The notes under the pieces: generated by a model
The model's database searches: none
What the model was told of the DNA's origin: nothing
Seen by the model: the letters and a program-made list of their open reading frames with translations, nothing else
Translations under genes and position numbers: made by a program
Shown here: positions 40,171-45,381 of the stretch, piece after piece
Layout: each line of letters begins with the position of its first letter
Position numbering within the stretch: position 1 is the first letter of the stretch
Assembly (NCBI GenBank): GCA_024137785.1
Contig: JAHRHZ010000070.1
Coordinates: forward strand, 15,963,153 to 16,027,152
Direction: 5' to 3'
Length of the DNA stretch: 64,000 bases
Source of the DNA: Ginglymostoma cirratum
Lineage: Eukaryota

Positions 40171-40342
40171 CCTCCAAGGTCCGTGGCAAGTTACCCTCAT
40201 TCTCCTGTGCCGGGGAATCCCACTCCGCCCATGACTCCAGGAAGCAGTATTCCACCATACCTGTCTCCTAACCAGGATGTAAAGCCACCATTCCCACCTG
40301 ATATCAAACCCAACCTCAGCTCCTTGCCGCCGCCACCTCCAA
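40171..40342 (+). CDS. ZMIZ1: ZMIZ1-like coding exon H
   Basis: ctttttag|CCT...CCAA|gtgagt; 172 nt; [57 protein letters not shown]. Confidence 0.95.
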
Positions 40343-42025
40343 GTGAGTCGGATGCGAAAGGCAAATGTTTTTAAAACTGGGATCACGATGTGCAGTGAAG
40401 GATGCAGCTCTTCAAATCTCCACTTCTTATCTTGTAGCCCGGTATAACACAACTCCAGCAGGGCTTTCTGCTTGTACACACAAAACGATCGTAAATACAA
40501 CTTGTTTGTTCTTACTCCAAAGCGTGGGGCAAAACCACTGCAGAACCTGTAAACAGACAATTAACAGTAGCTTCAACAAGGAGTCTATGATCTCCCACTG
40601 TCAATTTGACAAAAGGAGTAATGGAATTGGCTTATTTCACCAGTTTGTTATCAGAATTTCCATTGAAGTTATGATGAACAGGAGAATGCTCCTTGAGGTT
40701 ACCGGTGTCAATGTCAAATTTTCTTCTTGGAATATGTATCTGCAAGCAATGTTGCCTATACATTTCAACTGTCAATTCCAAATCTTGTCTCCATCTTGTT
40801 AACTTAAATCCCTAAGTAGATATCAATCACCTTTTTGTACTTTGCACATATAATGGAGCAGAAGAAGGGAGGAGAATTTTCTTCAGTTGTGTCTCACTGA
40901 AAGTAGGGTTTCCATTGAGGCAATGGTGGGGGATGAATAGGTGCAGAACCCAGGGGGAATGTGCCCCCATGGTCTACTTGAGATCTGGATCCACATTCTC
41001 ACCTTGACTGTTTTTGCTGGCTTAGCTTCAGTTTAATGGTTGTGGCCTGTGTCAATCTGTGAGCTGAGGAGCATCAAAGACCGCACCCGAAAGACTTAGA
41101 AAAGTACTTAATAAATCTAATGGGAAATCCAACAAATGCATTTCCAGTTGAGTTTCAATACTGTAGTTATCACAGTTTTGACCACCTCATGATCTCACCC
41201 TTTGGTTAACAAAGATGCCTCTCATTTATTTATTTCACATTTCCTGAATGTGCTGAGCAGTTGGGTCTGCTAGACTTTGTTATGTGGTATTATCAGGAGA
41301 GCAGAATTCCAGGTGTGAAGATTGCTGTCAGTCTGTTCTGCTGAAGCCAAATCTTTTAAAGTGCAGTTCCCTTTAACTCTCCTGGCTATAAATTGACTTT
41401 GCAATGTCACCACCTAAACGGTTAAACTGTTTGCATCATCATGTTCCTTCACCTGTCTTGTTGAGGATGCTTAAACCTTTCCAAGTATTTATCACATTGT
41501 TTCTCTTATTCTGAGTATTCATATGGCCATATATCAGTAAGCTTTTAAATTACACAAACAGCGCACTTGCAATGTCTAAAATCTGCTCCTTATTTTTTTG
41601 TCAAGTGACTTCCTTTTGTATCAGTCAATTTTCTCGCCCAAAATGTAGTGGAGATGAATCCAGAATTTTTTTGTCATGCATCTAATTTGAAATCCGAGAG
41701 CTGAACAAGTTCCTTCACATGAAGAGTGAAGCATCTGGAATGGTTTTCAAACTGACTGGTTGTGACTTGTTTAGGAGTGTTTCTATCACCGATTAAGTGG
41801 TGGGGGGATAGTTTTGGGGACAATCTGCGATCAAAAATACTGACTGTAGACTTGTGTTCATAACTTTGATAATTACATCTCTAAATACAACAGTGAAGGT
41901 TTTACACCCATAGCTACCCCCCTCCTCAAAAGGATTAAAATGTTGTTTAAAATCGGTGGGGTTATTTTCACAGTGTATTTTTCCATTGAACATTTAAACT
42001 TCACTGTGTTTCCCTGAGTATATGT

Positions 42026-42083
42026 CAGGTGCGTGATTTGCATGTAAAAGAGTCTATTTGCATGGACTGAGTCAAATGCAAAT
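42026..42083. promoter_or_regulatory. Candidate POU/octamer enhancer module
   Basis: ATTTGCAT 42036, ATTTGCAT 42056, ATGCAAAT 42076, TGAGTCA 42068, CAGGTG 42026. Confidence 0.55.
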
Positions 42084-42545
42084 CAGATCAGATTGCTTTC
42101 ATTGGGTGAAGTTTATCAGTTAGGAATCATGTATTAACAATGTTTCATGTAGGATATAGGGCTCTTTTGGCACAAGTGGTAGTGCCCCTACCTCTAAGCC
42201 AGCAGGCCCAGGGTTCAAGTCCCAGAACAGGTTGATCAGGAGATATCTATTCTTGGGATAAGGCTAGCGGACACTGGAGGGGTGGGGAGCTGGTTTGCGG
42301 AGGGTTAAAAACAGGACTGTTTTGCCTCCTTACTCAGCTAGGGTACAATTTATGACAGTCCTGCTGAATCTTCTGGCGCAGAGGATCTCTAGTCCACCCT
42401 CCCACAACCACAAAGTCCAGGGATGTGAGAAAAGAGAGAATTGTTCCAATGAAGTGAAATCTGGTGATGATATGAAAACCACATTTTTACTGTGTCACAG
42501 ATGCTAAAGGGAAAGTTGACACTTTCTCTCCCTCTTTGGTCTCAG

Positions 42546-42681
42546 CCAACGATGAGCTGCGGCTGACATTCCCAGTCCGAGATGGTGTGGTTTTGGAGCC
42601 CTTCCGATTGGAGCATAACCTGGCAGTCAGTAACCATGTCTTCCACCTGCGGCAGTCGGTGCACCAGACATTAATGTGGAG
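42546..42681 (+). CDS. ZMIZ1: ZMIZ1-like coding exon I (start of conserved central domain)
   Basis: ggtctcag|CC...TGGAG|gtaaga; 136 nt; [44 protein letters not shown](R). Confidence 0.96.
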
Positions 42682-42809
42682 GTAAGAGCATGAGTGGAAA
42701 TCACTTGCGTTTGGATGGTGCCTTTCACATCCTCAGGGTTGTCTGCATTTGGAAGACAGTCACTATTGTTTTACAAGCAGCTGCAGCTATTAGCTTACAC
42801 ACTGCTAGA

Positions 42810-43170
42810 TGTTATTGATGTGTTTAAAATTATGACGGGACTGGCTGCTAGCATGATGTTTCCCCAACCTGGAATTGCAATGTAAAAGGGTCTGTCTGAA
42901 ACAATGTGCCAAGGTTTCAGGATTACACTATAGACTATTTCAGACTAAGTTGAGGAGAAATTTCTTCCCTCTCTGAAATGCTGTACTCCATAAGGCTGTG
43001 GAGGTCAAGTCACCGTATATATTTTAACAAAGAACTAATTTCTAGAGGCTAAAGGTATCAAGGGGTGTGGAGAGAAAGAGCAGGGGTAAGGCATTAAGAT
43101 AGAGGATCAACTAAGATTATGTTAAATGAGGGAGCAGGCTCGATGGAGTGAATGGCCTGCTCTTCCTTTT
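42810..43170 (+). mobile_element. CR1 LINE 3' end
   Basis: IDVFKIMTG motif and CR1 3' UTR ggagcaggctcgatggagtgaatggcctgctc. Confidence 0.7.
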
Positions 43171-43199
43171 TTCTGTATTTGCCTCTAAAGTCTCAAAAT

Positions 43200-43490
43200 G
43201 AGCATTGCAGTAAATGATCAGTGAATCTGTTCTAGGGATGGCAAGACACCAGGAAAAATTCCTGTGCTCCTTTTCCAGTAGGTGCCATGGATTATTTTAC
43301 ATCCACCTGAATAGGATGAGGGGGCTTGATTTTATTCATGTCTCACTCAAAAAAAAAAAAAAAAAAAAAGCCACTCCATCAGGACTGCTGTGAATGGAGA
43401 GTCTAACTGCTGTGTTTGAGGTCTGGATTTGGGCCTGAACTTGCAATCTTCTATCCTGAAGGAAGAGAGCTAGCACTAAACCAAGCCGGC
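43200..43490 (-). mobile_element. Deu-domain SINE remnant containing an A21 run (43349-43369)
   Basis: caagacaccagga...gtgccatggattattttacatccacctga matches the reverse complement of the Deu-SINE core. Confidence 0.6.
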
Positions 43491-43779
43491 TATTGGAGCA
43501 GTACCAGATACTCGGTGCGATTTATCATCTAAATTTTTTAAAAGCGTTGAGGTGTTTCATCATTGTAGGACAGAAGCTGCTGAAGTCATACTGAAATCCC
43601 AGTTTACAGGCATGTTTGTGTGAAATTCTCTTGCTATTTTGTAGCAGCATTGATCTAAATAGTTTAAGTGGTGCAAATGTCAACGTTACTTTCATTTTGA
43701 CATCTGTCTTGTCAGTGCACTAAATTGGGTTGTATCTCAGTCCTTTCGCCCATTAAGTGGAAACAATGAGGCATGGGAT

Positions 43780-44520
43780 CATGCTGCTTATTACTGGTCT
43801 AGTAACCCAGAGACCTGGGCTATTGATCCAGAGACACAAGTTCTAATCCCAGCAAGGTACATGAGGAAGATGAGCATTTATTGCGCACCCCTAGTTGCCC
43901 TTGAACGTAGTGGCTTGGTAGGCCATTTCAGAAGATACTTGAGAGTCAACCAGCTGGGGTTGTGGAGTCACATGTAGGCCAGACCAAGTGAGGAATACGG
44001 GTTTCCTTCCCTAAAGGACAGTTATCAGCCAGATGGGTTTTTCTGACAATCGATAATGGTTTCATGGTCATCCAGTAGATTTTTAATTCCAGATTTTTTT
44101 TTATTGAGTTCAAATTCTGCTATCTACCATGGAGGGATTTGAACCCAGATCCTCAGAACATGAGCTGAGTTTCTGATTTATTGTCTAGCAATAATACCAG
44201 AAGGCCATCGCCTCACCATTATTAAATGAAATAAATCTGGAATGAAAAAGCATGAACCTTTAGATTGCTGTAAAGCCCCTTTTGTTTCACTTGTATCCTT
44301 TAAGGAAGGAAACCTGATGATTGATCCTGGTCTGCATGTGACTCCAGAACCACTGTAATGTGGCTGACCCTTAAATGCCCCCTGGAAGATATGAAAAGCT
44401 ATAGTAATTTCCTGCCTAATGGTGTGGCTCCTTCACACAACTGTTGGCAGTTCAAGAAGGTGACTCCTTGGGAACTGGCAGTCGATGATGGCTTTGCCCA
44501 ACCTCCCTTGAATGAGTAAA
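43780..44520. mobile_element. Nested SINE-B: minus copy (about 43872-44215) inside an older plus copy, followed by a LINE tail
   Basis: Plus head 43780-43868; plus body resumes at 44225-44385 (tttaaggaaggaaacctg...catgtgactccagaacc). Confidence 0.75.
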
Positions 44521-45129
44521 GAAAAATATCTCTGGTTGAGTGTGGATGTCGAGAGAAGTGGAAGAAATTCCTCCTGTTCTCTGTTACCGTTTTCTGATTC
44601 GGAATGTGATGTGGTGTTATACTGAAGTGAATCAGACACATTTATCAGCACTAACACAGGTTAGAACAGTGACTCAGCAAGATTACCTGATGAGTAGCTG
44701 AGAGATGGAGACCTTGAATCTCTCGGTTCACTTTGCTAGATTTTGACTCAGTTGTGATGCTCAAAGGTTGTCAAGTCAGCTGACCGTACTAGTAAAGCTT
44801 GCACATGAATAATGCAACGTACTGGAGAGATCCCAGTCATCTCCGATATTTGGAGAGAGCTAATCATATCAGAAAAGATAGGGACAGAATGCTGGAAGTT
44901 TTGAAAAAAATTGTAGGATCTTTTATAGGTATTCTCAGCTGTCAAGATAGAAGGATACTGGATCCCTTCAAAACCTCCAGCTTTATGGAAGATGACACTA
45001 ATGGGACCAGTGGCATTGAGTCCGCATGGAGAAATAGCGGCCACACTGGATTGCAAGCGGTTTTTTTTTGTGATGAATGTGTGTTGCTTTGGTGTGTAAT
45101 TTTGTGCTCGATTTCTGCAATTTATCTGA

Positions 45130-45381
<252 letters not shown>

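Follow-up and report, generated by a model that had tools for sequence, protein, structure and literature searches.

Three perfect octamer motifs lie inside 48 bases of a ZMIZ1 intron in a shark (motif scan; Table 1), and the reading that we favor, at somewhat better than even likelihood, is that this cluster is a homotypic POU/octamer enhancer module of a known kind, with ZMIZ1 itself or a PPIF-like gene as its putative target. The basis for that reading was observed: the motifs, the single copy of the cluster, its host gene and neighbors, and the conservation pattern. The binding, enhancer activity, factor, target and origin discussed below are what we infer from these features. The stretch analyzed, here called the window, comprises 64,000 nucleotides of Ginglymostoma cirratum DNA. 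If the element is real, it would offer a shark POU enhancer that is compact and open to testing, together with a handle on the age of Oct/OCA-type control; moreover, since the counterpart human locus holds immune-cell PPIF enhancers in ZMIZ1 introns, it would bear on the age of enhancer-gene wiring. As a kind the element is ordinary, with 16 other octamer triples in the same genome.

The cluster and its host gene

A first-pass annotation of the window had listed three octamers, an E-box, an AP-1 site and two TGCATG words, all of them at exactly the right positions. Clusters of octamers accompanied by an E-box are well known from textbooks, and here a CAGGTG E-box, which we take to be of the muE5 type, co-occurs with the octamers as in Ig-type enhancers; the TG flank of octamer 1 is presumably that of the Ig light-chain-type decamer. 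The window overall is not octamer-rich, with 6 octamers versus 5.71 in shuffles. Counted against the enhancer reading is the finding that strict patterns for the ETS/IRF, MEF2, EBF, NF-kB and RUNX consensus have no match within 41750-42400.

Table 1. Features of the octamer cluster and its host intron, in window coordinates.
Feature	Position	Strand	Remark
ZMIZ1 host intron	40343..42545	+	2.2 kb; end is 42500 if the upstream acceptor is used
E-box CAGGTG	42026..42031	+	presumably muE5-type; exact position confirmed
Imperfect palindrome	42034..42085	.	sets octamers 1 and 3 symmetrically around octamer 2
Octamer 1 ATTTGCAT	42036..42043	-	with TG flank; TGCATG at 42039 overlaps
Octamer 2 ATTTGCAT	42056..42063	-	midpoint of the imperfect palindrome; TGCATG at 42059 overlaps
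AP-1-type site TGAGTCA	42068..42074	.	kept in organism A, not in organism B
Octamer 3 ATGCAAAT + CA flank	42076..42085	+	inverted versus octamers 1 and 2
High-copy repeat head, tRNA-SINE-like (by inspection)	42160..42224	+	77 nt downstream of the cluster, separate from it
In-frame exon extension, 45 nt	42501..42545	+	between two AG acceptors
ZMIZ1 coding exon	42546..42681	+	begins GBD-like domain PF25527

The exons flanking the host intron match PF25527, an exon further along the gene shares 98% identity with whale shark ZMIZ1a, and ZMIZ1 names dominate the best 120 of 681 matches; N-terminal exons of the gene lie 147 and 115 kb upstream. The genome holds one paralog, on a different contig, which we take to be ZMIZ2 from a diagnostic residue. 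The matching intron of this paralog contains zero octamers, even with one mismatch allowed, and this too counts against the enhancer reading.

Frequency, origin and conservation of the cluster

The alternative to be weighed first is that the cluster is a neutral relic, either a cluster formed by chance or a local inverted duplication that is decaying, functionless and noticed through whole-genome motif scanning; we hold this to be unlikely, though not markedly so. Much of the evidence on frequency can be read in its favor. Under Markov models of order 1-5, a calculation proposed in the first-pass annotation, three octamers within 48 bp are expected about 1e-5 times per window and 0.6-0.8 times per 4-Gb genome, a chance level that suits the neutral reading, as does the 2.2 expected for looser triples. 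On the scale of the window the cluster is a rarity; on that of a whole-genome scan it is unremarkable. Across the genome, with spacers of 2-30 nt and in four orientation classes, at least 17 distinct loci carry an octamer triple against the 2.2 expected, all genome-wide triple counts being lower bounds. A control 8-mer of the same composition and similar frequency has as many same-orientation triples as the octamer (13 loci versus 12), so an octamer-specific excess in this class was rejected; the excess there is due to tandem duplication, not biology, and raw clustering proves little. Mixed-orientation triples, the class to which the ZMIZ1 element belongs, stand at 6 loci where 1.6 would be expected (Poisson P 0.007); in the single mixed class, of three, that was scanned for the control word, the count was 0. 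This enrichment is suggestive only, since a duplicated pair joined by a site arising at random would raise the count as well.

Several features of the other triples can be recorded in their own right. The densest cluster found has five perfect octamers in 67 bp at C289:35206193-35206259, with a sixth 185 bp upstream. The unlinked triples at C133:8704294 and C275:8700555 have an identical six bases after one octamer, and a 19-nt word containing two octamers is common to triple loci on C13 and C289. About 4 kb from the triple at C218:38565921 lies an RGG-rich coding exon without a Pfam hit, presumably G3BP-like. At 10 of the 16 other loci (+/-10 kb), a crude coding score and Pfam analysis of 6 candidate frames gave no gene names. 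An unrelated array in a metagenome contig repeats octamer-containing units in tandem.

The cluster does not behave as a repeat. The first-pass annotation had named membership in a dispersed repeat as grounds for abandoning the enhancer reading, and what was found is a single BLAST match for the 216-bp cluster segment in the 4.36-Gb genome, from a search that skips very common words, so that the single match alone is no proof of single copy, together with an absence of repeat pile-up: hundreds of contigs from related genomes cover the SINE-like head at 42164-42224, but only one to three cover the cluster. The SINE-like head is also present at the corresponding place in organism B. Dispersed-repeat origin was rejected on the one match genome-wide and on the 16 triple loci, which lack common flanks close to their clusters bar one 56-nt hit. 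The annotation had also argued, from differing spacers, that this is no simple tandem duplication, and tandem triplication was rejected as well: TRF reports none, the spacers are unrelated, and as direct repeats the three 20-bp units agree pairwise at only 2/12, 4/12 and 2/12 flanking positions. That the octamers are perfect although the spacers share nothing as direct repeats stands against the neutral reading.

A different kind of symmetry is present. The segment 42034-42085 is an imperfect palindrome with 24-nt arms that are 75% complementary; outside the octamers, 8 of its 14 pairs are complementary (P 0.013, post hoc). Equal spacings follow from such mirror symmetry in itself, and hence the exact 20/20 spacing counts as one coincidence, not two. 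The earlier proposal of helical phasing as a designed feature loses its footing here: the palindrome yields the equal spacing, site 3 is inverted, and the 12-bp spacers fit no PORE, MORE or Sox-Oct arrangement. The simplest origin would be an inverted duplication arising locally about octamer 2. That the palindrome accounts for the octamer spacing also suits the neutral reading, as does the genome-wide count of inverted octamer pairs at 12-nt spacing (7, versus 7.7 expected); enrichment of this pair was accordingly rejected, and the agreement indicates that the site frequency used holds genome-wide. A hairpin is predicted with z of -2.47 as DNA and -1.78 as RNA, and it is largely forced by the octamers; on these grounds, and with one sub-threshold Rfam hit, a structured RNA or snRNA was rejected.

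The comparison data comprised 22 runs of four organisms, of which 7 runs were compared. Run X11 contributed short, unrelated pieces at the cluster and run X18 reached the exon alone; missing coverage of this sort carries no weight as evidence. The octamers and their spacing, for which the first-pass annotation had proposed such a comparison, are intact where readable in two close relatives. Organism A (runs X4 and X8; about 5% diverged) has 44 differences over 893 bp and zero in 42034-42104; every octamer is unchanged in it, as are the E-box and the AP-1 site. Taken alone this is weak, at P 0.30 for 24 intact octamer bases, a value congenial to the neutral reading; change-free stretches of 85 and 82 bp elsewhere, versus 71 bp at the cluster, were counted against selection. 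For organism B (runs X13 and X15; about 16% diverged), an ungapped 130-bp alignment contains 20 differences, of which 12 could be placed; the other 8 fall in about 30 nt of alignment ends, where octamer 1 and the E-box are unreadable and could be hit. Octamers 2 and 3 and their spacing are kept. Within the 70 fully reported positions 42056-42125 there are 11 differences, none of them in the 16 octamer positions (P 0.044); pooling organisms A and B gives P 0.017 for unchanged octamers. In its divergence in organism B, the cluster segment as a whole (20/130 differences) resembles other alignable intron pieces (22/140 and 24/138), which was counted against selection. Nevertheless, octamers 2 and 3 stayed unchanged while adjoining bases changed, which tells against the neutral reading, and with a chance of about 0.02-0.04 of unchanged octamers under neutral drift, the comparison lends modest support to selection on these sites. 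The AP-1 site, which had been proposed as part of the module, fared otherwise: it is broken in organism B by 42069 G>A, seen in two runs (X13, X15), while octamers 2 and 3 stay, and its loss can equally be placed on the neutral side. A metagenome pattern scan for distant homologs gave 2 hits, both without flanking similarity.

Candidate factors and target genes

In the favored POU-enhancer reading, each octamer would be occupied by a single, monomeric POU protein, and the three sites would add up via joint occupancy and not via direct, phased protein contacts. The most likely factor would be of the POU2 class, Oct1/Oct2 with OCA-B, because all three octamers are the consensus preferred by OCA-B. 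The equal spacing would be a probable by-product of the local inverted duplication around the middle site, after which selection would hold the octamers but let the spacers drift; the module would not need the AP-1 site. In keeping with the POU reading already given in the first-pass annotation, the genome encodes such factors, with 21 POU-domain matches, and a gene of the POU2AF1 (OCA-B) family.

OCA-B favors the canonical octamer in monomer configuration (PMC10812921), OCA-T1 with POU2F3 has an equal requirement for A5 (PMC13043367), and POU3F2 also binds the canonical octamer (PMC9081933); since these share the octamer, the motif cannot name the cell type. The same point emerges from the OCT2/OCA-B elements in BCL6's locus control region, which have a canonical octamer with A at position 5, as in the shark, and are distal to the promoter, as the shark cluster is distal from its presumed target promoter; OCA-T1/2 with POU2F3 need A5 too (PMC13043367), so that the shark motif does not point to B cells in particular. 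A parallel in a fish is the core of the catfish IgH enhancer Emu3', likewise short and made of several octamers and one muE5-type E-box (PMC1800861). Catfish Oct2 drives a synthetic octamer trimer, and the IgH core, with two octamers and a muE5 site, responds to Oct2 (PMC1800861). The differences are that the catfish core has two variant octamers, proven activity and an Ig locus (PMC1800861), whereas the putative shark element combines three octamers of consensus type within a gene other than Ig. The IL-2 octamer/AP-1 composite (PMC2191694) resembles the shark cluster in that an octamer adjoins an AP-1-type site, but the shark AP-1 site is gone in organism B with octamers 2 and 3 retained. As in the shark cluster, POU sites are in inverted arrangement in PORE, MORE and Sox-Oct elements; there, however, the half-sites overlap or adjoin, and the shark octamers are 12 bp apart. 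The best matches to the PORE, MORE and Sox-Oct consensus in the cluster have 3, 4 and 4 mismatches, respectively (PORE consensus from PMC10812921). Among the matches listed for ZMIZ1 enhancers or POU factors and for shark octamer enhancers, the cluster is not described in any title or abstract start, and the available text of a ZMIZ1 review (PMC13687641) has no occurrence of "oct".

As to targets, ZMIZ1 is followed, on its own strand, by a pair of cyclophilin genes. About 37 kb downstream lies the first coding exon of the nearer gene, an assignment made by motif rather than Pfam; the farther gene has an exon whose best match among solved structures is PPIF. The human locus offers a parallel: an enhancer in a ZMIZ1 intron, which lies nearer to the PPIF promoter, lowers PPIF in monocytic and B-cell lines when silenced (10.1101/2020.09.01.278093), and more PPIF elements within ZMIZ1 introns have been described (PMC13692272). 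The human enhancer (rs1250566) is, like the shark cluster, intronic in the 3' part of ZMIZ1 (10.1101/2020.09.01.278093). The distance to the cyclophilin gene is 37 kb in the shark and 61 kb in human, and that to the ZMIZ1 5' end is more than 147 kb in the shark and 218 kb in human. In the available text on the human enhancer an octamer is not mentioned (10.1101/2020.09.01.278093), and the likeness observed is one of geometry.

The tandem PPIF-like genes lie at about 79,000-100,000 and 117,000-122,000 in window coordinates. In the second gene two exons are candidates for the first, one of them bearing an N-terminal extension that resembles a mitochondrial leader. Its region also holds an additional exon-like copy, at L041:5940-6032.

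The alternative acceptor and readings at the RNA level

A second alternative, which we regard as improbable, is that RBFOX proteins bind UGCAUG words in the pre-mRNA and shift usage between two acceptors separated by 45 nt, the octamers being incidental. The setting suits an RBFOX element: UGCAUG words on the sense strand of an intron that borders an alternative splice event. The host intron ends in two in-frame acceptors, and in RNA-like contigs of two organisms (runs X19 and X18) the upstream exon is spliced to 42501. Hence the earlier figure of about 460 bp to the exon stands for the acceptor at 42546, 462 nt from the last octamer, and not for the one at 42501, which is also used and is 417 nt away. 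Among the 105 of 121 stored ZMIZ1 proteins with a readable junction, whose long and short forms are database predictions, the 15-residue insert is present in 42 and absent in 63, and both forms are annotated in chimaera and in alligator. An old alternative acceptor thus adjoins the intron and gives the UGCAUG words a plausible target. Both TGCATG words are intact in organism A and the second is intact in organism B; the two organisms share 42033 G>A, which yields a third TGCATG at 42030.

Set against this, the third word was lost in the lineage of the window, the words are some 440 nt away from the nearer acceptor, TGCATG has no strand bias in the window (28 versus 25), and the predicted hairpin, weak in stability (z -1.78), would partly bury both words. 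Among the matches listed, no title or abstract start connects RBFOX with the splicing of ZMIZ1. Moreover, conservation extends to the inverted octamer and, in site 2, to the bases 5' of TGCATG, although RBFOX would need neither. Octamer 3 carries no TGCATG on the sense strand, yet organisms A and B retain both it and its flank, and conservation of this inverted site and its flank points to a DNA-level reading.

A third alternative, very unlikely in our estimation, is that the octamers serve a nearby start site, as an internal or antisense promoter or an snRNA-type distal element, or arrived with a transposon: an octamer and a TATA box suffice for B-cell promoters (PMC13043367), mammalian ZMIZ1 has N-terminally truncated isoforms (PMC13687641), and the SINE-like head is close by, but 41750-42400 contains neither a TATA nor an SPH consensus, there is no Rfam family above threshold in 40300-45200, no CpG-rich stretch near the cluster and no snRNA-type gene nearby, and the cluster is single copy and clear of repeat pile-up. 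The contigs used for splicing cannot show start sites.

Finally, the first-pass annotation had raised the possibility of a dual element. In its fullest form, the DNA would act as a POU enhancer reaching beyond ZMIZ1 to the PPIF-like gene and the RNA would carry UGCAUG words steering a 45-nt acceptor kept from chimaera to birds; we think this very improbable. Were it true, the cluster would be an ancient counterpart of the human ZMIZ1-intron PPIF enhancers that carry immune-disease variants.

The 45-nt alternative acceptor is absent from the available text of the ZMIZ1 review (PMC13687641). The 15-residue extension directly precedes the GBD-like domain, and both forms are annotated from chimaera to birds and in amphibians. 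The bases just past the donor (40350-40370) resemble the start of the 45-nt extension (42500-42520) at the opposite end of the intron, a likeness that may be due to chance.
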